From NCBI GenBank assembly GCA_010093815.1, contig ML996585.1: a stretch of DNA of 64,000 nt; one strand, written 5' to 3'. The translations under genes were made by a program, and so were the position numbers. Shown one piece after another: positions 18,151 to 51,400 of this stretch (positions are counted from its first letter, which is position 1; the number at the start of each line of letters is the position of its first letter). The DNA comes from Pseudovirgaria hyperparasitica (taxonomy: Eukaryota). The notes beneath the pieces are model-generated. The model did no database searches. It was not told the origin of the DNA and saw only the letters and a list, made by a program, of their open reading frames with translations.

Positions 18151-19016
18151 GAGTAGGCGTATACTATTATTTAATATTCGCCTATGTAATGGATATAACC
18201 AAGGTGTTACTATAATGGTAATTAAGATATATTATAATTTAACTTAGAGAGAATAGAGATAAGCCGTATGGTTATAGCTTTAAGTATAGTCTTAAGCGAG
18301 GTCACGTGATACCCCTATACTAGTCTCTATCCATCCCGGCTCTATTATATAATACTAGAGATAAGGTAAAGCCGAAGTCCATAACATACCCTTATTCTCT
18401 AGGATTGTTCTAGGGACCGGCTTAGTGTTTTATATAATAATAACCGGCTCGGTTAGGTCTTAGGTTTACGGTCTTTATATTATACTATATAATAACCGTA
18501 GAGCTATATATTCCTTCTAGTAAGGTAGTAGCTTTTTATAGTAGTATCCTAGCGGTTACGTGGTGGAGGTTAGTTCCTTATATTACGGCGTCGTAGGTTA
18601 TATAATTATAAGATAGTAGAATCCTATAGTTGCGTCGTGGCGGTTATATAGTAAAGGTAGACTCCTTATATTATGGTGTACCGCGTTAGGTTATATAAAG
18701 GTAGGGTAGCCTACGTACGAACCGCGCGTCCTATTTTATTATTATCCGTTTTAGGACCGGCTACTCTCTAGGCTAGGGGTTATATAGTAGTAGTAGAGTA
18801 GCTTGCGCATGACCCGCGTTTATTATTATTATCGTCTATTTTAGGACTAGCTCTACCCCGGTCTATATGATTTTCCCTAACACGAGTATATAGGTTCTAC
18901 GCCTAGCGACTTTCTTCTTTCTTAACTACCCTTACGCCTACTATCTTAATACCGCGTAGTAGCTACTATAATATTAGTAAACTCGTATACCACCTCGCAG
19001 CTTCTATACTATTATT

Positions 19017-20490
19017 ATAAGCGCTCTAGGCCTAAATAGTCCTATTATAGAAGCCAGCGCCGTCTCGGCGGTGGCTATAGATACTAGAGGTTAAGACCCT
19101 AACGATTATCGCGCGCCTAGGCGCTAGGAACCAGCTAATTATACCGTGAGTAGGTCCTGTCTCTACGCCGTTCCTTATACTAACTAGATAGACTATTCCT
19201 TCTACCGTACCCCGATAGGCTAAGCCTATTCGCCGTATAGAGCTATATATTATAGAGGGTAACTCGTTAGAAGACGAGCGTACTAAGTCCGTGTACTTTA
19301 TATATTATATATATATAAAGGCCCTAGAGAAAACTAGGGTACTTAGATATATACCGTCTCTATACCGTGGCGGCGCCTACTAATCTTAGAGCGTAGCTAT
19401 AAGTCTAGCCGCGGTACTAACTATATAAAGTACTACACGTTAAAGGGGACCTACTTATAGAATACTAAGAAGCTCGCTATATACCCGGCCTTACGTAAGG
19501 CGTAGAGTCGTCTTAAAAAGTTTATACACGAGTTAGTTAATAATAACTTTAGCTATATAACGGATCGTGGTAGTCGCGGCCTAGACCTAATAAAGCCTTC
19601 GTCCGGTAAGTAGCCGTGTATAAACTCTAAGTTCTACTATCTATACGAGGACTATAAGTCTAACTTAGAGATTATCTATATCACGCGATATAATACTAGT
19701 ATTATTAGTTAGACTCCCGTAACGCCTTATCGTGGCGCCGTAACGTCGTTTAAGCCGCCGTATCACGGTAGTAGTAACCATAGCTAGATTAGTAGCGTGA
19801 TTCACTAGATAAATTAGTACATGTCCTATAATAAGGCCTAGATAGATAAGCTATATACTAGTATCGGCACCTTATAGGTATATAAGCTTTATAAGTCTAA
19901 ATACCTATTCTAACGCGTGACGTAGGGTACTATATAGTAAGTCGTGTCTAGGTTGGCCCGTCTAGCGGAGCTACTATCTCGCTACCTTATTACTTAGGTA
20001 GTTATAGAGGATAAGAAGCCCTTATTAGGTAGTAGCCGCTTACGCTAACTCTAGCCCGTAGGCCATAGAGAGTCGCCGACTCGGAGCTCTCGCTATCGCC
20101 CTATTAGGCCCCCCCGGCTCCCTATCGCCGCCCCTCCTCGTGAGTCCTTACCGCCTTATTATTAGCCCCGGACCCCTCCTCGCTACCGTGACCGCTCCCG
20201 GTCCTACGAGCGTTATAGCCGGTCCCCCGTCTACTATAATCGGTTTCCCTACTATCGTAACCGGTTATATAACCGTTAGAACTAGTCGTACGACCGTCGC
20301 CGTCACTCGGGTAGCTATTAGTACCGTTCCCGTGAGGATTATTAAGTATCGCGCCGCTATCGGTTGCTGGCCTGTCCCCGCTATAACCCTCCCGTAGATA
20401 AGTACGACTCGCCCTTACTACCCGCCTAGATTAATAGCCGCCGCTATTATTAGAAGACGGCCTAGAGAAGGACTAGGTAACTAACCTTAT
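19017..20490 (+). pseudogene. Antisense multi-intron accessory gene remnant inside Gypsy element A (Cys-cluster-like motif plus RS/RD-rich tail)
   Basis: Plus-strand GT..CTAAC/CTAAT..TAG intron-like units at ~19146-19191, ~19339-19389, ~19606-19667, ~19878-19925 and ~19998-20054. Tyr (= RIPed Cys) pattern Y-x7-Y-x2-Y-x6-Y at 19398-19454. RTPPRYRDRSRSYER-type reading at ~20170-20230. Ends approximate. Confidence 0.6.
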
Positions 20491-20619
20491 ATTAGGATTT
20501 GCGGATAAGGACGGTACCGGCCCTAGCGCCGTGTAAACCTAGGGTAGGGCTAGGTAAATAACCTTTTTATGTCTTAAGGTAGGTGTCGGTTTATTATTAG
20601 GTTATACTAGGTACTAGCG

Positions 20620-23600
20620 TTCGGTATTTATTTCTTTCTTTTCTAAAATCTCTACTCTTATATTAGGTTATTAGGGCCGCCGTGGGCCTATAATAGTAGA
20701 GTAATATTACTACTTAGGGATGCGTTAGAGTCGTAGGCCGTTATATAATTAAGCGTCGCTATATCTAGACTCGAACCGGTCTAGCGCCTTAGTATCTTCT
20801 ACGTCCTTAAGTAGGACCTATATTAGTTATAACTAACCTTTCTACTTTATAAGTACCTATTACTTATTCCGCCCCCGTGTATTTTTCGCACGTAGAATGT
20901 CCTTAATCTTATACTCCGTGACTTCCTCGTCTACTTTATTAAGCTCGAGTACTAGGCCCGGGCGGGTATTAAGCCGCTCTTGGCTAGGTAGGGGATCCTC
21001 TATAGCGCGCTTAATAAGACTTATATAGACCGTTTTATAAAGGTCTCCGGGGAGGTTAAGGGTTACTATTAAGGGGGTAGGTTAGACTATAACCCGGTAT
21101 TTTATCTATAGCTAGTCGAGCTTCCGGCTCGGGCGGTTAGTCTTTATATTCTAGAGGGAGAACTATACTATATCGCCGACCTTAAAACGCTCGGCCGGGC
21201 GTCGTAACCGGTTTACCGAGTCTTAGAAGCGCTACTCGGCCTAGGTAATAGCCGCTTAAGCTAAGGTAGTGCCGTTCTAAAGGTGTTTAAGGAAATTTAT
21301 AGCCCGACCTTTTACTAAGGTCGTAGAGGCGTTAGAGAGTGGCTACCGTGGTAATAGTTTAATATAGTATCCGTTTAGAAGTAAGTTTAGCGCTATACCG
21401 GTTACTAACGAGGTGCGGTTATTAAGGGCGAGCTAATATACTAGGAGATATTCTAGCTAGTTAGTTTACTCGAAAGTTACTATAACGCGTAGTATAGTCT
21501 ATACCTCCTAGTTCGCACGCTTAGTACCACCGTCCGTCTACGGGTGGTAGGCCGTAGAGAGGTTCTAGTGTATACCTATTATGGAGTAGAGGGTTATCTA
21601 GAACTACCTAAGCTAGTCCGAGCCCTAGTCCGTGATTATTAACTAGGGGAACCCCTAGAAACGCTACCACGTATTACGGAACCGCGTAGTATAGTCCTTA
21701 GCTACTATAGAGGTTATCGCCTCTAGCTAAATAAACTTTAAGAGCCGGTCCGTAATAATAAGAAGATATTAGAGCTAGGATAGGTCCGATTAGGGGAGGT
21801 CGGTTATAAAATCCATAGAAATTTAGGACTAGAACCGGTCTAGTGTTAGAAGAGGCTAGAGGAGACTAGGGGCCTTATATTAGTTTACGTGGGCCCCGTA
21901 GTAGTTATAGTTTCGTACGAACTACCGGATATTAGTCTATATCCGCTTCTAGTAGTACTCCCGCTAAATAGCTATATAAGTCTTATTCTTACTAGGATAG
22001 CCCGCGAGGGGGGAGGTATAGGACTTCTAGATAATAGTCGTGGTAAGAGGTTTCTACTCGGGTACCTAAATGACCCCCCGCTATATTAGTATTCTATATA
22101 CTAATATGGCGTAGTCTATAACCTATTTAGTAGTAAGCGCCTCCGGTAGAAAGAGGTGTACCCTACCTACTACGGCCCTATAGTAGACCTAGTATACCGG
22201 GACTAACTAAATAGCCTAGTTCTAGAGCTCCTAGAGGTAGAGGTCGGTAAAGATACTTCGTCTCTAGGGGAGATAGGACTCCCCGGAGCGGGTGCTTACT
22301 AGTACTATTCTAATAGTCTATAGGGTTATAAGCCGTCCCCTTAGGAGGGACTTTTTAGATAAGTTCTAGTTACGGCGGCTTAGAGTATCTAGGCGGGCCG
22401 CCTAGGATCCCGGCCGGTATACGAGGTCGTAGTTAAATAGTATAAGCTAGTCGGACTATCGTTACTACCGTAGAATAAGAAGATAAGACTTAGTAAAGTG
22501 CTTAAGGTTTTTATAGTCTATATAGACTATAAAGGGGCGGTAGACGCTTTAGAGCTTAGGTTCCTACGTCTAGAGATACTAAACTACTATAAGGAGCTTC
22601 TTATCGTGGATTATATAGTTCCGCTAAGCGGCCGTAAGGGCCGCGGAATAGTAGGCTACCGGGTACTAAATACCCCGAACCTTTTAGGATAGGTATCTAC
22701 CCGTCACGTGTCCGGAGTAATCCGCCTTAACTATTATATCGCGTATCTTATTCTAGGACTAGAGGATTAGCCTAGTAATGAAAGCGTTCTTTAGCGTATT
22801 AAACGCGTGGTCCTTAGCTAGGCCCTAGTAGAAGGCCGTCCTAGCCTTAGTAAGGGCGTAGAGCGGGGCCGCTATAGTAGAGAAGTTAGGGAGGAAGTTA
22901 TAGTAGAAGTTTATAAACCTAATAAACCGCTAGATACCCCGGACCGTAGTCGGGGGCTTCTAGTCCCGGATAGCGGCGATCTTCTCCGGGTTAGGGCGGA
23001 TTAACTCTCTAGCGGTAATAATATAACCTAGGTACTAGACCTCCTTAGTAGCGAAACGGTATTTAGTAAGGTCGTAGTAAAGGTCCGCCTTTATAAGGAG
23101 AGATAGGATAGTTTTTATAGCGGCCTAGTAGTCTTCTAACGTGCCTAGGGTATATATAAGGATATTATCGAGATACGCTATATAGGTAACCCCGAGGACC
23201 CCGCTTAGTACTCTATTAATATAGCGCTAGAAGAAGGTAGAGGCGCCGGAGAGACCGAAAGGGAGAACTATCTATTTAAAGAGGCCGAATGTAAGGAGGC
23301 GGGCTCCACGTACCAACCAACTACACTAAAAGGACCGAATCTTGAAGCTACTACTTCAAGGGTGGAGCACACTACTTATATACGACTACTACACACATAT
23401 AGAATCAACTGGCAGGCCACGTGCTCCTTACGTGCCTAACATTATCTCCCCTTTTCGAAGGCGCGTGTCCTTACGTATCGTGGGCATATTACCTTACGAA
23501 AGATGAACTGAACTAGCCGCAACGGGCCTAGTATAAACCATGTGCACACACAACGAATATTCGTAATGCCGCCTCTAGTACTAGACATACTAACTTACCG

Positions 23601-26300
23601 TAGTGACGTTACTACCATGTCATCTATTACGTGCATAAAGTACATGTAACGTGGCAAGCTAAACGGAATCGTGCGAAATTCAATAACGGTTGACTAGACC
23701 GAGAGTTGAACCCGTGACCCCGTAGTAGCTTTAAGATTATATAAGGAGGCGGGCTCCACGCACTAACTAACTATACTAAAAGGACCGAATCTTAAAGCTA
23801 CTGCTTTAAGGGTGGAGTACACTACTTATATACGACTACTACACACATGTAGAATCAACTAGCAGGCCACGTGCTCCTTACGTGCCTGATACCGAACTAG
23901 GTACGGAAGGCCGTCTTATATTCGTCCCTAGTAGCGACCTATAGTTTATAAAATACCGCCCGGATGTCTACCTTACTAAACCATGACGTATTACTAATGG
24001 TATATAGAGTCTCGTATATAAGTGGTAGCGGGTATCGGTCCTATTTAGTAATACTATTAAGGGCCCTATAGTTAATATATAGCCGCTACTTCCCTCCCGG
24101 CTTAGGGATAAGAAGTACTAGCGCCCCGGCCGCTAAGGAGCTAGCCCGTATCTATCCCTTATCTATAAGATCCGTAAGCTAGCGATAGAGCTCTACGAGT
24201 TATTCCCGAGATATAGCGTAGAGCGGTCCCTAGGGGAGGTTTATAGGGGTTCCCGCCGGTATAGACTTAATATAGATATAGTAGTTAGTATTCCCTCTAT
24301 AGGGAGGTAGCACCGACGCCTTTTCCTTATTAAAGAGATTATGGTAGGCGTATAGCGTTAACGGGAGCGGGCGTCTATCCTCTATAAGCTCGGTCGTATT
24401 CTAGTTAGGTACCGGAGGTAACTAGGGGAGCATAAGTTATAGGAGGCGGGTGACGTCGCGGATACTAGTAGTAACTACTCGCCTACGGCGGTAAGCCGTC
24501 TCTAGACCCCTAGGAATATAGCCCTTCTTAGTAAGGACCCGGATACTTATTAGACGCCTATAGATATTAATATCCCGGGCTATAAGGCCGTGGGCGCGGT
24601 AAAGCGTGATTTCGTCTATATATATATTAATAACGGCGCCGGCCTAGTAGAGCTACGGGCTCCTAAGGATAAGGTCCCGGTCTAGCCCGGGCACTATATA
24701 GACGGTAAGGCGTTATCGCTACCCCGCGATATTATACTAGATAGTAACGACTTCCGTAATCTCTAGTCCTAATACTCCGTTAGTAGTAAGAGCTACTTGA
24801 CGATGTAGGACCGAGATATACGACTTAGCCACGTCTACTATAAGGGCCGGGCTAACCACCACGAAATACTCGCACCCTATATCTACTAAGGTATCTATAT
24901 ACTTCCTATTCTAGAGGAATAGCGATATAACGGGTGGGGATCCGTCTATAATCTAAGCGGGCGCGCTATCCTCTAGGTCGGAGCCGTTATCCGGGTTGCC
25001 TATAGCTTCGTTCCTTACCGAATATAGTAACGTCCTCTAACCTAGGCTTTAGTAGAGGGCTATACTTCCCCCGCCTTAGAGTTAGAATTAGTATTATTCT
25101 AAGCTAGGGCTATAACCTTAAGCGCTCGTATATTAATAGCGTTTAGATAGCCCCGGTATTAGTAGCTAGCCTAGCCGTACCGGGTATACACGCCCGCCGT
25201 GCGGCGCTTCTAGAATAAGTCCTTCGGGATCTATAAAGGAGTCTCTTTCTTCTTAACCCCGTCTCTACCCTTTACTATTAGGGACGCGGCTCGCTTCTTA
25301 CTCTTTATCTTAATAGTCTTAATAGTAACCGCCGATATTATCGTATCGCCGTCCTTATCCTTACTAGGCCTATTTTAAGGTACGGCGCTTTACCTAGTAT
25401 AGAGCTAGAATAACTCTATATCTATACTAATATTCTAAAGGCGGCCTACGGCGGCCTTATACTAGTCTAGGAGGCCCTGGTTTAGGGCTACCGCCTAGGT
25501 CTCCTAGTTAAGGCCGTCCCGGAGCCGTATAAGCTTCTAGTCATTAGCCTAGTATATTCCCCTAGCCTTCTAGAGGGCGGTATAGAACCGCACGAAGTAC
25601 TCTATAAACGGCTCCTTTACCTTTTATATAATTATATTTAACTACTAGAGGGCCCGCTCTTTAGCATGTATGTCTCCGAACTAGAATTTAAGGTAGTCTA
25701 AGAACGCGTATAGATCCTAGTCACCGTTTAGCCCCCTAGTGGAATATATAGTACTAACCCCCCTCTATACCTTAGGCGCTAGGTTAGTCTAAATAAGGGC
25801 TATTTAGTCTCTATAGGTACCGATAAAGTCGGCGTTCTAGGTAATCTTATACTATATCGTGACGGACTATATATAGAAGAGGGCCTTAGACCCGTTATAT
25901 AGGTCGCTAAGGGGGAGGGGCTTCCTCTTAGGAGCCTAGTCGAGTATAATATACGGCGTAGAAAGTAGTAAGGCGGGAGCGCGTGTAGGAAAGGCTAGTT
26001 TAGGCCCGTATAGGCGTTAGGGCGCTACCGGGGAGGAGTCGGGCTAGGGTAGGGACGAGTTACTATAAGTTAAGGTGGCGGGAGTACGGCTATATAACTT
26101 AACGGTAAGGAGGCGGGCGTTAATATATTATAGAGCCGTATAGACGCTATGTTCGATGTTAGATATCCGAGACTCGCTTACCGCTTAGACGGCCGTAATA
26201 GACTCGTGGATAGACCGTATCTCGTCCCGAAAGCTAAGGAAGGAGTTAGAGAGTTACTATATTAGATTAGAGTCTTACGGGTTAAGACTATCTTATACTA
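20620..26300 (-). pseudogene. gag-pol of Gypsy element A (CCHC, protease, RT, RNase H, integrase, chromodomain), interrupted by the TRIM
   Basis: De-RIP readings: CCHC knuckle ~25140-25200; RT FRTQFG|LFEW.VLPFGL split exactly by the TRIM, and YLDDILIY ~23150-23180; integrase STAYHPQTDGGTER ~21520-21560; chromodomain YLIKWKGW..PTWV..EDVED ~20790-20860. Confidence 0.88.
23290..23891 (-). mobile_element. TRIM (terminal-repeat retrotransposon in miniature), 602 bp, inserted in the RT of element A
   Basis: 152-bp direct LTRs at 23290-23441 and 23740-23891. TSD CCGAA at 23285-23289 and 23892-23896. Non-coding 298-bp interior. PPT (minus-strand AAAAGGGGAGATAA) abuts the left LTR. Confidence 0.92.
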
Positions 26301-26576
26301 TAAGGCCACGTATAGGAAGAGATAATTAAAGTTAAATTAATATAATAGATATAACCAAGGTGTTACTATAATAGTAATTAAGATATATTATAATTTAACT
26401 TAGAGAGAATAGGGATAAGCCGTATAGTTATAGCTTTAAGTATAGTCTTAAGCGATGTTACGTGATACCCCTATACTAGTCTCTATCCGTCCCGGCTCCG
26501 TTATGTAATACTAGAGACAAGGCAAAGCCGAAGTCCATAATAGCCTAGTATATATAGTATATAGAATCTAGGCGTA

Positions 26577-26716
26577 TGTTAGGCACGTGCCTACCAGTTG
26601 ATTATACATGTATGTAGTAGTCATATATAAGTAGTGTACTCCACCCTTAAAGTAGTAGCTTTAAGATTCGGTCCTTTTGGTATAGTTAGTTGGTACGTAG
26701 AGCCCGCCTCCTTATA
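26577..26716 (+). mobile_element. Solo LTR (140 bp) of the TRIM LTR family, opposite orientation to the TRIM
   Basis: Reverse complement of the TRIM LTR. TSD GCGTA at 26572-26576 and 26717-26721. Confidence 0.9.
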
Positions 26717-35165: not shown

Positions 35166-35716
35166 GTTATACGGAATACTATACTAGTTATTAATATAAT
35201 AGCCTATAGGGTATACTTATTAGTAGAGGTGGTTATAGGGAGACTATTCTCTTCGTTTAGATTTAGAGAGAGTCTCTTATATAAGGTAGTGCTACGGGTA
35301 TTATAGCGCGTAGTAGAAGCTATCTCTATAAGCTGCTATCGTGCTATATAGAGAGAAATTAAAATATAAAGAGTAAAGACGTAGGATAGTAGTCTAATAG
35401 TTTATAGAGAGATATAGGAATATATTTATAGAGTAATCTTACTCTTATACGAGGTTGATTTCTAACGAGTAGGAATCGGTTTATATGGTCTACTTATATA
35501 GTAACCTTACTTAACTTAGCTAACTTAACCTAGCTCTAGCTACTACGTGGCTACATGGATTAGAATAGTCTATATAGGTCCGTTATAGTTCCCGTCCTAA
35601 TACTTACGATCCTTAATCCGGTCCTTATTCTTATCTCTATCTTTATTAGAGTTATTATAGTAAGTCTCCTTATTACTACCCTTATTATTAATATTAATTA
35701 GCGCCTTAATAGTATA

Positions 35717-35856
35717 TGTAAGGAGGCGGGCTCCACGCACCAACCAACTACACCAAAAGGACCGAATCTTGAAGCTACTACTTCAAGGGTGGAGCACACT
35801 ACTTATATACGACTACTGCACACATGTATAATCAACTAGCAGGCACGTGCCTGACA
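35717..35856 (-). mobile_element. Solo LTR (140 bp) of the TRIM LTR family, almost free of RIP
   Basis: TGTAAGGAGGCGGGCTCC...GTGCCTGACA with TSD GTATA at 35712-35716 and 35857-35861. Retains many CpA/TpG dinucleotides. Confidence 0.92.
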
Positions 35857-36808
35857 GTATACCTAATTATTCGTAAGTAGTGGCTAGTAGCTACCATATC
35901 TCTAAATATTTACTTAAGTAACTTAAGGTAAGATAGACCTTTACGTCTAAACCTTCTATAATCCTTATACTTAGCGAAGTATCTATCTATAGCCTTAGAA
36001 TCCGTCTAGTATATCCCTAGTCTATTACTCTACTACCATCCTAATAGCGCGTTTAGGTGCTTATTCTATAGCTTAAAGGCTTTCTTCTAGGTACCGAACT
36101 TCGACTTTAGTATCGCGGTAGTTAACTTAAATAGTAAGTCCTTTTCTATCTCTATTTCTATAGCTATCTATATAGTCTTTAGAAAGGTTCTACCACTACT
36201 TTAAAGGCTAAGTTTCCTTAATAGAAAATTATAGAACTAGACCTTAATCGCCGGTGTCGTCTATATCCGCCCTTTATATTTTAGTTTCCCTCTACTAGAT
36301 ACTACCCTCTTTAGTAAAGAGATAGACACCTATAGATCTATAGTATTACTCCGCCTATATTTTAAACTAGATAATAAAGAGTTAGATAGTAATTAAATAG
36401 TATTAGTAGATAAGGGCACGTTAGAGTCCTTACTACTATCTAGTTACTACTTATATAAAAGTATACTTTTTAGTTTCTTAATAGATTTAGATGATTTAGT
36501 ACTTATAGACGATTTATCTACTAGTAGTAGAGGGTTAATAACGTCGTTAGGCGTATATATTACTATTTTTATACCTTAACTTAGTATATAAAGGTATGAC
36601 TTTATTTTTAAGGTTAGAGGTATAGTATATATACTACCCCGCCTTAAGGTTATATTACTAACTAATTACTAAGTAAGCTAACCTTTAGCCAGATTTCAAA
36701 TACCCAGTCGCTCTAGAGGTTAAACTAATATAAGACTATTAACGGGTGGCATACGGACGCCGTCTATACACTAGTAAATAAGGTTTTTTTAAAGGTTAAA
36801 AATCGACG

Positions 36809-43327: not shown

Positions 43328-45246
43328 ATGAGGTTTCAATCTGCTCTCTCTACTGCTCTGCCCGCTCTGCTTCTTGCAGGCGGTGCTCATGCAGAGGACC
43401 TGGAGGACAAGGTCGCCGACGCTGCCTCATCCGTCTCCTCGGCAGCTGAGTCTGCGTCTGCGTCAATCGTCTCCAAGCCGACGTTCACCGTAAGTTATTG
43501 ATTAATGCTCACCTGTCCTATGGCGCACAATCCCAAGTACTAAATACCGGCCGCCAGCCTACCGTCCTAAAAGCACCCTTCTTTGAGCAATTCACAGACG
43601 ACTGGGAGAGCCGATGGAAGCCATCGTCTGCGAAAAAGGAGAACGACAAGGAGGATTCCGAGGAGGAATGGGCCTATGTTGGTACCTGGGCAGCGGAGGA
43701 GCCTTACATCTACAAGGGAATTGAGGGAGACAAAGGTCTTGTTGTCAAGGACAAGGCCGCTCACCACGCCATCTCGGCCAAGTTCCCCAAGAAGATTGAC
43801 AACAAGGGCAAGACCCTGGTTGTGCAATACGAAGTCAAGCTCCAGAGTGAGTATTGTCATACTCCTCGTCTCCGATTCGTGCTGACAATGCGCAGATGGA
43901 CTCGACTGTGGTGGTGCCTACATGAAGCTTCTCCAAGACAACAAGGCTCTCCACGCTGAGGAATTCTCAAACGCCTCTCCTTACATCATCATGTTCGGTC
44001 CTGACAAGTGTGGTTCCACCAACAAGGTTTGTAGGAATTCGCATGTCCATTGGACCATTTTCACTAACTTGAAAAAAAAAAGGTCCACTTCATCTTCCGA
44101 CACAAGAACCCCAAGACTGGTGAATACGAGGAGAAGCACTTGAAGAGTTCTCCGTCAGCCAAGATTGTCAAGACCACCTCCCTCTACACCCTATACGTCA
44201 AGCCCGACCAGTCTTTCCAGATCCTGATTGATGGCGAATCGGTCAAGAACGGAACTCTTCTTGAGGACTTCAAGCCCTCCGTCAACCCTGAGAAGGAGAT
44301 TGATGACCCCAAGGACTCCAAGCCCGACACTTGGGTTGACGAGGCTCGTATTCCTGACCCAGAGGCCACCAAGCCCGAGGATTGGGACGAGGAGGCTCCT
44401 TACGAGATTGTTGACGAGGAGGCTGAGAAGCCTGAGGACTGGCTTGAAGATGAGCCCCTTACTGTTCCTGACCCAGAGGCCGAGAAGCCCGAGGACTGGG
44501 ATGATGAGGAGGATGGTGACTGGGAAGCCCCCAAGGTCCAGAACCCCAAGTGCCAGGAAGCATCGGGTTGTGGCAAGTGGGAATCACCTATGAAGAAGAA
44601 TCCTGAATACAAGGGCAAGTGGACTGCCCCGTACATTGACAACCCGGCCTACAAGGGTGTCTGGGCTCCCCGCAAGATCAAGAACCCCGACTACTTCGAG
44701 GACAAGGCCCCGGCCAACTTTGAGCCCATGGGTGCTATCGGTTTTGAACTCTGGACAATGTCCAACGACATCCTATTTGACAACATCTACATCGGACACT
44801 CTATTGAAGACGCCGAAAAACTGAAGGCGGAGACCTTTGACATCAAGATTGCCTCGGAGAAGGCTGAAGAGGAGGCTAACAAGCCCAAGGTCGAGCCTCC
44901 TGTCTCACCCTCTGATCTCAAGTTCATGGACGACCCAATTAAATATATCCAGGAGAAGGTGAACCTCTTCATCTCTATTGCCAAGGACGACCCACTCGAG
45001 GCCGTCAAGTTCGTTCCCGAAGTCGCTGGTGCCATCGGAGCCACCGTTGTGGCTCTCCTCCTCGCCATTGTCTCTCTATTCGCCTCCGGTGCTGCGCCCT
45101 CGAAGCAGCAGGTCAAAGACGCTGCCAAGAAGGCTCAGGACACCGCAAAGGACGCAAAGGACAAGACTGCTTCAGCGGTGGCATCTGGCGCAGAGACTGC
45201 AAAGGCAGAGCTCAACAAGCGCACTACCCGCTCGACCGCCTCGTAG
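43328..45246 (+). CDS. CNE1: Calnexin (ER lectin chaperone), 4 exons
   Basis: Signal peptide [62 protein letters not shown]-domain repeats [21 protein letters not shown], and a C-terminal TM. Confidence 0.96.
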
Positions 45247-48435: not shown

Positions 48436-51400
48436 CTAACTCCCCCTCCGCACCCCCCTCCCCTCAGGAAACGGATCATACAACCCCCTAACAGCAGCAT
48501 GCCAATCATCACACCGAAACCTACCCAGCCGGCCCGGCGACCCCGACCCGGATCCCGAGCCCGCAGACCCCGCAGACCCCGACACCGACCCCCGTATCAT
48601 CCCCTCGCTCAGCGACGCGATAGACGAGGAAGACACGCTCGCCTTGTTTGGGATGGGGATTGGGATGGGGCGGGTTGTGCTTGTTGGTTTTGTGCTTGTG
48701 CTTGTGCTTGTGCTTGTTGGATTTGATTTCGCTGTTGATTTCGAGTTTGAGTTTGAAGCGGGGGCGGATTTCGGGTTTGAGATTGAGCTTGTTGATTTCG
48801 GGTGTGACGCAGACTTCGACACAGACTTCGACGCAGACACAGACGCCAACCCCCCCTTCCGCAACGACCCAGCCGAGCTCTTCGGCGTAGGCACAGCAGG
48901 CACCGAGCCCGGCGGTGCGCCGTATGTAGCGCTTATCGTGCGGTGGGTGTGCGGGCGGGACGATGAATTTGACGAGGTTGCAGATGCAGCCGCGGCGGGG
49001 TTGGAGGGAGAAGGAGAAGGAGGAGAGCGTGTGAGGTTCAGGGTTGTTTGTGGGGTTAGGGGGGCGGGGGCTTGGGAGGCGGTTGGGGTGGCGAAGGGGT
49101 TGGAGGGGATGAGGGAGATGTGCGAGGGGGAGGGGGGGTAGGTTCTTGGGAGGGCGATTGGGGGGGCGGGGGTGGAGGTTGTGGATGGGGTGGGAAGGGG
49201 GGGTTCTTCGTCTTCGTCCTTTGGTTCTTCGGGCTTTGTTGGGTCTTCGGGGGTGGACTCCTCAGGTTTTGGTTCCTCCGGTTTTGGTTGTTCAGTCTTT
49301 GGTTCTTCAGTCTTTGGTTCTTCGGGCTTTGGTTCTTCAGGCTTTGCGTCTTCAGTCTTTGCTTCTTCAGGCTTTGCTTCTTCCGGCTTTGGTTCTTCGG
49401 GCTTTGGTTCTTCAGGCTTTGCTTCCTCCGGCTTTGCTTCCTCCGGCTTTGCTTCCTCCGGATTTGCATCTTCAGTCTTTGCTTCTTCAGGCTTTGCTTC
49501 TTCCGGCTTTGCTTCCTCAGTCTTTGGCTCTTCAGGCTTTGGTTCTTCAGGTTTTGGCTCTTCAACCTTTGGCTCGTCAGGTTTTGGCTCCTCTGGCTTT
49601 GCTTCTTCAGCCTTCGGCTCTTCAGTCTTTGCTTCTTCAGCCTTTGGCTCCTCTGGCTTCGATTCTTCAGCCTTCGGTTCTTCAGCCTTCGGTTCTTCAG
49701 TCTTTGCTTCTTCAGCCTTTGGCTTCTTGGCCTTTGTCTTTTCAGCTTTTGGCTTCTCACCTTTTACCTTGTCACCCTGTGCTTCTGGCTTTGCAGCACC
49801 AGCCTTTTCCTCGTCCGCCTTCGCAACCCCCGACTTCACCGACGCCGCTCGACCAGAACCGGCAGACTTGACGCTGGACCCCAGCGCAGATCTCGCAGCC
49901 GACAGTAACCCAACACTCGAACCCGCCGGCGAGCCGCTCACCGACCCACCCTTCTCAGACGTCGCACTCGGCGGCACAAGAATCCTAGAATATGGCTTCA
50001 CGCTCCCCGTCTGCGAGCCTGCCGCGCTCTCCGCCCGTCCACTCCCCGACCCAACAACGCTCTCCCTCGGCGCCAGCACAGCCGTCGTACCGGCGGCCAC
50101 AGACGGCGCCCTCGACGCCACCGACACAGCCTTCTCCGGCACGATACTCTCCAGATCCAGCGTCCGGCCAAGCTCCTCCCGTCGTTCCACAATAACGTCG
50201 GAATCCTCATACAGCGCCAGCCCGCAGCTGTAAACACATCCCTTGTCATCCGCTTCCTCGTCCGTCAGCCTCATCTCCCGCGGCGTCGGCGCGCGCCGGA
50301 AGCTGGGGAATACGCGGAGCACGACTTTGGCGTCTGCATTCGCATGCGCGGGCATGTCAGGCGCGCAGCGGCTGAGGCTCACGTCGCCCTCCAGAGTAGC
50401 CGTGCTCGTGTCGTACGGCAGCCATAGAGCGGCGCCAGGAGGCGCGTCACCCATGGATGCAGTGATACAGTCGCGCTCCAGTCGCGCCAATCGCCACGTC
50501 TCTGCCGCTAGCTTGACGATCCGTCGCACGGCGGCATTGACGTCGCTCCGTGCTGCAGGCAGCGCGAACGGCTTGAGTGCGGCGGTGATGTCTTCCACGA
50601 CCGAGCCTGCGACGCTGTTGATCTGTGCCTTTGCACCGTCGCACTGGAATGCGGCTGTCAGGGTGTGCTGGCGCCAGATGGCCTCTTTCTTTGTGCTTTT
50701 GAGCTGGAGATGGGAGCTCATGGATGCGAGCAGGGTGTCGGTGGCGGTGTCGGACCGGGGTAGGCTGAAAAGGAAGGGGGAAAATATGCGGCGGGTGAGG
50801 ATTGTGGAGATCAGGTGGGCTATGTATGCTGTGCGAACGTGCTTGGCAGGGGGTGTGTTGGCGAGAAAGGGTGGGAGCTCCGAGGGGATCGTTGAAGTGG
50901 TCTCTGCAGAAAGATTTGGTGGGCAAGTGTCAAAGTGTTCGTTGGCGAGTTGCAAGGTGTGACGACAGAGTGTCTCTAGGGCATCTTTGCTAGAGGCTTG
51001 CAGTTAGTGATGAGAGCTCTGGCGGTAATTTACCAGGATCCAGTGGGCAAGGCCATGTAAGAGAAAAGATGAGCGCGTTCATTCAAGGGTATCGTACCTA
51101 ACATCTACCGAAGAATACACAATAAAGGCCAGTGTCGATGGACCAGAAGGTATAAATGCAAAACACGGAACCGAAGACCAAAGCATCACTTACTAGTACG
51201 CATCCCCCTTGCTCTTGAGATCAGTAGTCACAGACGCTGATAGAAGTTTTGACAGCCGCTCTTTCTCCGACCCAAGAGTCTCTGAAACCAGGCGAAGCTC
51301 TGAGACTAGGGCCTCCAACTTGAGCTTATCTTGATCCCAACCCTGCTGTGCAGTTGCGAGATTCTTCGTCAGCTCTTCATTCTGCTGCTGTAGCTGCTGC

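Follow-up and report, generated by a model that had tools for sequence, protein, structure and literature searches.

The window analyzed here, a 64,000-nucleotide stretch of contig ML996585.1 from Pseudovirgaria hyperparasitica (GCA_010093815.1), contains a RIP-mutated block at ~16.5 to 37 kb in which the TA/AT ratio is 1.7 to 2.6, compared with 0.4 to 0.9 elsewhere. Within this block lies element A (Table 1). A reading of this DNA made from the letters alone (the sequence-only reading) had given element A its own LTRs, and this was borne out: the two LTRs are flanked by the target-site duplication GCCTA, and the internal region has the RT-RNase H-integrase order of Ty3/Gypsy elements, with Pfam RVT_1, RT_RNaseH, and Integrase_H2C2 matched in pol when stops were read as X. 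About 2.3 kb separates the end of pol (~20710) from the 3' LTR, close to the ~2.2 kb noted earlier between the chromodomain and the LTR. On the strand opposite to gag-pol, this interval carries a gene of four exons and three introns (18987 to 20480), 450 codons long including the stop. The window's dead copy alone is an ordinary RIP relic, and its antisense gene is a dead, RIP-killed remnant.

Table 1. Features of element A and of its antisense gene, in window positions
Feature	Position	Strand	Remarks
Element A	18185-26542		RIP-mutated Ty3/Gypsy LTR retrotransposon, gag-pol on (-)
3' LTR	18185..18387	(-)	203 bp
CCG-N8-CCG pair in 3' LTR	18331		Present in other copies, damaged in window copy
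Polypurine tract adjoining 3' LTR	18388..18402	(-)	From sequence
Upstream region of antisense gene	18540..18860	(+)	~88-nt repeats, variable copy number
CGG-N8-CGG / CCG-N8-CCG pairs upstream of antisense gene	18553, 18641, 18746-18758, 18847		
Exon 1	18987..19145	(+)	Start site inferred
Intron 1	19146..19191	(+)	46 nt, phase 0, GTGAGT / GCTAAC / AG
Exon 2	19192..19346	(+)	Acidic EG-x-S-x-DE motif and Cys positions 1-2 (19303, 19312)
Intron 2	19347..19396	(+)	50 nt (49 in A2), phase 2, immediately 5' of third Cys position
CCG-N8-CCG pair in intron 2	19354		Intact
Exon 3	19397..19877	(+)	Cys positions 3-6 (19398, 19422, 19431, 19452), conserved helical / GTRG-P-GKYP-like region
Intron 3	19878..19925	(+)	48 nt, phase 0; supported by -2/+2 indels and by relatives
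Exon 4	19926..20480	(+)	Short helix, then Arg/Ser/Pro tail with 7-residue repeat
gag-pol, RIP-killed	20710..26300	(-)	RT, RNase H, integrase, chromodomain-like end
Nested short element within RT	23289..23887	(.)	149-bp terminal repeats
Further pairs toward 5' end of element A	25514, 26029, 26103		
5' LTR	26340..26542	(-)	203 bp
CCG-N8-CCG pair in 5' LTR	26487		Intact

The short element nested in the RT region has ~300 bp between its terminal repeats and a 5-bp duplication at its flanks, and it looks like a TRIM-like miniature LTR element; its repeat is also found at 26577-26714 (inverted) and 35716-35864 of the window. Host genes of the window (49149-49838 and 44300-44509) contain a 15-nt coding-type tandem array, as well as repeats whose translation resembles a calnexin/calreticulin P domain.

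A genome search with the element A region gave 26 matches, 23 of which span the region: 16 copies of subfamily A1 (including the window copy), 6 of subfamily A2, and a single copy, L023, representing a third subfamily. A2 diverges from A1 by 5.4% transversions. Of the 13 full-length copies fetched, 11 measure 7.66 to 7.89 kb and have LTR pairs 0 to 1 transversions apart. In L023 (G000:C21:297745-302556), the 5' flank and antisense exons 1 to 3 differ from A1 by 3 to 18 transversions per 100 nt and the tail and pol by merely 0.4 to 0.9, a pattern which suggests that this copy may be a recombinant.

The gene model was built by column-by-column comparison of the natural copies. Because RIP itself generates CTAAC, TAG, and Tyr codons, the evidence was limited to signals that RIP cannot make, namely, transversions and indels; a hard stop in all copies cannot choose the frame either, since RIP saturates CA/TG sites. 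Every one of the 23 copies is RIP damaged, with 18 to 33 internal stops per copy in the antisense frame. At 18 internal codons most copies have a stop, which is TAG or TAA in every case, as expected from RIP, and TGA is seen at the terminal stop only (position 20478; TGA in 2 copies and TAA in 21). The ATG at 18987 is kept in 4 of the 23 copies and reads ATA in the window copy. For each of the three introns the acceptor AG is intact in all 23 copies, and the donor G is retained in 21, 21, and 11 copies for introns 1, 2, and 3, respectively, the splice signals of intron 3 being the weakest.

The sequence-only reading had allowed for up to five introns and had considered the exon phase across the TA tract to be beyond resolution by eye. 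Three introns hold, and the phase could be resolved, as exon 2 ends at 19346 and is followed by a phase-2 intron. The comparison of splice and branch signals across copies, which that reading had proposed as a check, showed conservation for these three introns and failed for four further CTAAC/CTAAT branch-site candidates, at 19099, 19135, 19587, and 20045. These are RIP products, because other copies read CCGAC/CCGAT at the same sites (1 of 23 copies at 19099; 13 of 16 A1 copies at 19135; 7 of 16 A1 and 6 of 6 A2 copies at 19587; and 10 of 16 A1 copies at 20045, where CTAAC is absent from A2). A CTAAC at 19417 and a GTAAG at 19606 were also rejected as intron signals; both are coding and lie in a gap-free alignment to an intact relative. 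The second check, for a reading frame joining the exons across copies, recovered the four-exon frame.

Fixed transversions between A1 and A2 fall at codon positions 3, 1, and 2 in the proportions 45/18/18 (45 of 81; P = 3e-5), and upstream of 20010 the corresponding counts are 17/8/0 (n = 25); in pol, used as a control, 41 of 44 transversions are at position 3. The third subfamily gives a similar result against A1 (20 of 36 at position 3; P = 0.005). Subfamilies differ by a 1-nt indel in intron 2, by -2/+2 changes within intron 3, by 12 nt of exon 4, and by a single nt past the stop; exon 4 is 21 nt longer in two copies. Frame-breaking indels are thus confined to introns or to sequence 3' of the stop. 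These patterns indicate purifying selection on the antisense protein, and we are nearly certain that the gene is real. It could still be argued that the whole structure is an artifact, with RIP creating the branch sites, stops, and Tyr codons and with GC-rich off-frames seeming RS-rich. That holds for the four branch-site candidates and in part for the RS composition, but as an account of the gene as a whole it is refuted by intact homologs (see below) and is at odds with the RIP-independent transversion and indel patterns, and we give it almost no credence. It has also been proposed for antisense additional ORFs generally (PMC7264820, accessible portion) that the transcript matters; here an antisense transcript would be the functional product, exerting copy-number control through double-stranded RNA or small interfering RNA, with the protein secondary. 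However, the codon-position bias, the in-frame indels, and a Cys spacing conserved across divergent elements demonstrate that selection acts on the protein, and we regard a transcript-based function as very improbable.

The sequence-only reading had recognized Y-x7-Y-x2-Y-x6-Y in what is now exon 3 and a YxxY upstream in the TA tract, taking the Tyr residues for RIP-damaged Cys; both motifs were confirmed at the Cys positions of Table 1. In the natural copies of element A, Cys itself is found at only two of the six positions (1 of 23 copies at one, 5 of 23 at the other); the remaining four rest on intact relatives. Since direct searches with the RIP-damaged protein failed (with exon 3, 0 of 6067 candidates were useful, and the single match, P0001, was repeat driven and judged spurious), the relatives were reached through pol homologs, which led to 75 metagenome loci (numbered with the prefix L, as are the element A copies). 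The pol end is present in 54 of these loci, 17 of which have at least 900 nt behind pol; in 7 of the 17 the Cys motif is found on the antisense strand, and in none is it found on the sense strand. A quick version of an integrase tree (64 rows) nested element A among L057 to L063 and L065 with SH-aLRT support of 100, and placed L064 and a Pyricularia oryzae protein outside this group. A link to the Magnaporthe element Grasshopper is conceivable.

The intact relatives have true C-x2-C-x11-C-x7-C-x2-C-x6-C, matching the Tyr spacing of element A, in L057, L061, L062, L064, and L090, and with x8 in place of x7 in L152, and they share an upstream acidic EGDS-x-DE motif. Gene structure agrees as well: a phase-0 intron precedes the acidic motif in L059, L061, and L064, intron 2 has the same phase and location in L061 and L062, and a phase-0 intron lies ahead of the last exon in L057, L059, L061, and L062. 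Exon 3 of element A copy L008 matched L061 by tblastn (E = 1.6e-9), and exon 3 of element A copies also matches L062 and L058/L059; profile-profile alignment of the exon 3 region to the relatives (hhalign) gave 96.8%. When the intact L062 exon was searched against the 35-Mb genome, it found five matches, all of them element A copies. The window copy itself matched the profile of the relatives weakly (iE = 1.1) and L152 with an E value of 8e-4, BLASTP failed to align exon 2 of copy L003 with L057, and a search with residues 1-140 of L064 returned its own downstream ORF only. Both selection across copies and intact homologs therefore support the proposal that the accessory gene is antisense, is spliced, and encodes a six-Cys motif. 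Its location between pol and the 3' LTR, a region spanned by 23 of the 26 genome matches, recurs in the relatives and is that of the known class of antisense additional ORFs.

Two of the relatives have peculiarities of their own. In L064, an otherwise open antisense exon is interrupted by a single TAG directly after the sixth Cys (~6205), which could be a mutation, an assembly error, or RNA editing. L152 is a complete fungal-type Ty3/Gypsy element with spliceosomal introns in the assembly of Tolypothrix sp. FACHB-123 (contig119), and this contig is probably a contaminant in the cyanobacterial assembly.

The consensus first loop of Zn2Cys6 proteins is six residues long. The intact relatives have the general Zn2Cys6 pattern C-x2-C ... 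C ... C-x2-C-x6-8-C, but the first loop of the clade has 11 residues rather than 6, and no member reaches the Pfam cutoff, there being no Zn_clus (PF00172) match in the clade. Pfam, PDB-sequence, and Atlas searches with the antisense protein found no named family, and the PDB sequence search matched no solved structure. A variant zinc-cluster fold is likely for the six-Cys protein. The more distant elements L102 (6281-6508, minus strand) and L087 (592-948, minus strand) also carry antisense Cys6 genes, with different spacings. L102 has the canonical x6 first loop and matches Zn_clus with an E value of 0.07 (13.6 bits against a cutoff of 21); it may possibly form a bridge to true Zn2Cys6 factors.

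The gene had also been assigned to the same class as an antisense gene in element C of the window. Position and orientation agree with this assignment; hhalign detected no homology between the two antisense proteins (probabilities 0.05 and 0.5), most Cys having been erased by RIP. The Tyr/Cys candidates of element C (28808, 28817, 28847, 28934, 28943, and 28964) are spaced unlike those of element A, and Cys is found at two of them (in 5 and 3 of 30 copies). Element C was left out of the integrase tree because its match covers 238 residues at 26% identity.

The last exon is indeed rich in Arg, Ser, and Pro, as had been read from the sequence. The tail is built from a 21-nt (heptad) repeat and is coding (28 of 56 transversions at codon position 3; P = 0.007), and it is the fastest-changing part of the gene, with 11.9 transversions per 100 nt compared with 0.6 to 2.5 in exons 1 to 3. 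With 22 R+S per 50 amino acids in the window copy and 27 to 33 in the least damaged copies, and 14 RS/SR dipeptides in exon 4 of the window copy, it falls within the definition of an RS domain (a length of 50 amino acids or more, >40% R+S, RS/SR dipeptides). It is possible to read the protein on this basis as an SR-like RNA-processing factor, the tail of which draws in the splicing and export machinery or competes with it and which might, by analogy with retroviral Rev, protect unspliced genomic RNA. The threshold for SR-related proteins, at least 70% R+S in a 20-amino-acid window, is reached in 5 of 23 copies and in 2 of 7 relatives (L057 and L061), and papillomavirus E2 offers a precedent for an RS-domain protein that regulates transcription and splicing (threshold and precedent both from the accessible part of PMC9479744). 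However, the window copy reaches 55%, chance alone takes 2 of 25 off-frames in GC-rich pol to 65% (the highest value of the off-frame null), alternating RS runs are no longer than five residues, and Pfam detected no RRM on exons 2 to 4 of the copies or on the relatives. Because an N-terminal RRM is missing, the tail fails the canonical SR definition as worded in the accessible text of PMC9479744. Among the seven relatives, the tails of L057, L059, and L061 are RS-rich, those of L064 and L152 weakly so, that of L062 is short and basic, and that of L060 is acidic. Since the tail is a variable heptad expansion in the most divergent region of a protein without RRM, an SR splicing factor seems an improbable description. 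The earlier suggestion thus stands for the RS composition, which is coded, and less well for the role in RNA or splicing; such a role of the tail is possible but does not appear to be what the family conserves.

A second line of evidence comes from short direct repeats. In L058/L059 the word CCCGAGT occurs 17 times where 1.8 would be expected, and it often forms pairs with an 11-nt spacing in introns and flanks. It was in these elements that the lag of 11 was first spotted, post hoc. In an unbiased word scan (88 words by 12 lags) over 41 nonredundant contigs of at least 5 kb, a lag of 11 or 22 was Bonferroni significant for 5 of the 10 elements with the gene and for none of the 31 others (Fisher P = 3e-4, or 1e-3 without L058), three of the 31 being significant at lags of 10 or 16. 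Because zinc-cluster factors read CGG pairs, Hap1 recognizing the direct repeat CGG-N6-CGG (PMC10954478 and PMC6265462, accessible portions), CGG alone was then tested. Outside pol, the 10 gene-bearing elements contain 99 CGG direct repeats at lag 11 and 72 at lag 22, against 26 to 45 at other nontriplet lags, whereas 18 control elements contain 11 pairs at lag 11 and 11 to 29 at other lags. Tested singly for CGG, 5 of the 10 elements with the gene gave P values of ≤0.01, as did none of the 31 others; kinship makes the elements nonindependent, and the 31 controls may include some truncated contigs. Other triplets at lag 11 gave ratios of 1.1 to 2.2, compared with 2.8 for CGG.

In element A, pooled CGG pairs at lag 11 numbered 35 in nine A1 copies and 38 in three A2 copies, against a null of 17 ± 4. 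These counts were reached in 0 of 2000 permutations, and at any lag in 2 of 2000 (A1) and 0 of 2000 (A2), with the qualification that A1 and A2 share sites and that the full-length A2 set consists of three copies. In 11 of the 12 copies taken singly, lag 11 ranked first; the exception was the more damaged window copy, in which there is no lag-11 peak (10 pairs, compared with 12 at lag 16). No peak was seen for inverted or everted CGG pairs in element A, nor at lag 11 in the host DNA of the window or in element C, which is CG-poor and offers little power. Scans of element A for 7-mers and 5-mers yielded no significant motif, the CGG test alone being significant. Element L087, initially a control, was flagged by lag 11, and a Cys6 gene was then found on the permuted contig. 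Two loci fetched as held-out loci after the lag-11 test agreed with the association: L152 has both gene and peak (18 pairs; 10 of 1000 permutations), and L153 has neither.

Pairs of element A are found in its two LTRs and in the upstream ~88-nt repeats, as well as in intron 2, the leader, and pol. The upstream repeat region is likely to be the promoter of the antisense gene. The number of ~88-nt (8 x 11) repeats at 18540-18720 differs between copies, including L017 and L018; in less damaged copies each repeat holds CGG-TCACGTGG-CGG, and GTCACGTG is also found in the LTR (18301) and in intron 3 (19914). In the other elements, where pol makes up 40 to 58% of each contig, the pairs within pol amount to 0 of 9 in L058, 0 of 6 in L062, 0 of 4 in L057, 2 of 16 in L066, 1 of 5 in L090, 4 of 10 in L087, and 2 of 5 in L127, so that these element-specific short motifs are concentrated in noncoding parts. 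The words around the CG core vary by element (CCGAG, ACGGA, CGGA, and GAGC), with GAGC in place of CGG in L066. L066 (5039-5950) and L127 (3808-4110) form a lineage of their own, in which the antisense Cys gene is split by an intron and GAGC occurs at 11-nt spacing (16 pairs in L066).

It may be that the gene is real and its product nuclear but that the 11-bp repeats serve a host transcription factor, Gag, or integrase, the Cys protein itself working by contacts with proteins or chromatin, for instance to target integration or to suppress RNA silencing. The noncanonical Cys spacing fits this possibility, as do L061 and L102, which have the gene but no lag-11 peak, and the spacer of some element A sites, which is a CACGTG box and presumably readable by host bHLH/bZIP factors. 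Gag and integrase are encoded by all of the elements, however, yet the peak was seen in 0 of 31 without the gene, and the change of the word around the CG core from element to element fits an element-encoded, coevolving binder better. We consider a different binder unlikely, though with an appreciable chance of being correct.

We favor, at somewhat better than even chances, the reading that element A carried a four-exon antisense gene, since killed by RIP, whose intact relatives encode a six-Cys protein, likely with a variant zinc-cluster fold and likely a binder of CGG-N8-CGG direct repeats in the element that encodes it. This reading draws on the gene model, purifying selection, homology at the same place, the Cys spacing, and the enrichment of repeats with gene-bearing elements. 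Against it stand the x11 first loop and the lack of a Zn_clus match in the clade or of a structure match, the absence of a peak in the window copy and in the gene-bearing L061 and L102, the GAGC word of L066, the post hoc choice of lag, and Gag, integrase, or a host factor as possible binders. Under this favored reading, the gene would be transcribed from the 3' LTR or from the repeats beside it, and its introns, being on the strand opposite to that of the genomic RNA, would not be lost in reverse transcription. The protein would bind as a head-to-tail dimer one helical turn apart, with dimerization through the helix and coiled-coil-like region. Bound at LTRs, introns, and leader, it could keep the element transcribed, either by activation or by opposing silencing, and the basic RS/P tail would be a disordered, replaceable appendage for nuclear targeting, phosphorylation, or nucleic-acid contact. 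We hypothesize more tentatively, at something short of an even chance, that many fungal Ty3/Gypsy elements encode a sequence-specific antisense zinc-cluster regulator together with self-seeded, matching direct repeats in LTRs, leader, and introns (CGG-N8-CGG or element-specific variants, one helical turn apart) that coevolve with it in each element; by analogy, such a system might do for fungal retroelements what VANC anti-silencing or a viral transactivator does elsewhere.

What is new here is the enrichment of CGG-N8-CGG repeats, a candidate target of the antisense protein; the class of antisense gene itself is known from brtn. The weight of the finding lies in the candidate target site, not in the dead copy and not in the RS tail. 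According to the accessible part of PMC7264820, what antisense extra genes do in LTR retrotransposons is unknown. The present analysis offers intact members of one such protein family, together with a specific candidate for the site that it binds, and the question of function can therefore be addressed by gel shift. If the proposed system is confirmed, it would explain how fungal retrotransposons stay active despite heterochromatin and RIP-linked silencing, and it would yield natural protein/target pairs of differing specificities.

The closest known gene is brtn of Boty (Zhao 2011, PMID 21802103, known to us through parts of PMC7264820, PMC4227169, and bioRxiv 10.1101/2021.04.13.439636). Like the element A gene, it lies in a fungal Ty3/Gypsy element of chromovirus type, antisense to gag-pol, between pol and the 3' LTR; the ~449 codons, x11/x7 Cys6 motif, RS/P tail, and candidate target repeats of the element A gene are absent from those accessible descriptions of brtn, by which alone the two are compared. 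The literature search on antisense accessory genes found no Cys6 antisense family or target; it did not extend to CGG-N8-CGG repeats in retrotransposons. DUF3716 (PF12511), as in REP9-1/2 of a Zymoseptoria transposon (PMC8232023, accessible portion), is likewise Cys-rich, fungal, and transposon carried, but the antisense protein has no Pfam match to it, and in the Atlas it is a low lead only (rank 17, score 0.80, 28% of members). SR and SR-related proteins share with the element A family an R/S-rich low-complexity tail with RS/SR dipeptides and SP sites (PMC9479744, accessible portion); the family differs from them in having no RRM, short alternating runs, and a tail that is unconserved among homologs.

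Zn(II)2Cys6 factors (Gal4, Hap1; PF00172) also have six Cys in two CxxC-led halves followed by helices, and Hap1 reads CGG pairs in direct orientation. In the present family, the first loop has 11 residues instead of 6, there is no Pfam match, the gene is carried by a retrotransposon, the spacer is N8 where that of Hap1 is N6, and binding is predicted. To our knowledge, no sequence kinship is to be expected between the element A protein and VANC. VANC, the anti-silencing protein of Arabidopsis VANDAL elements, localizes to introns and termini of its own transposon (PMC5735166, accessible portion). It belongs to a plant DNA transposon, and both its binding and its role in demethylation have been demonstrated; for the element A protein, binding and anti-silencing are predictions from sequence. 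The likeness would lie in the arrangement that both seem to share, namely, an accessory protein paired with element-specific short motifs in the introns, termini, and tandem repeats of its own element.
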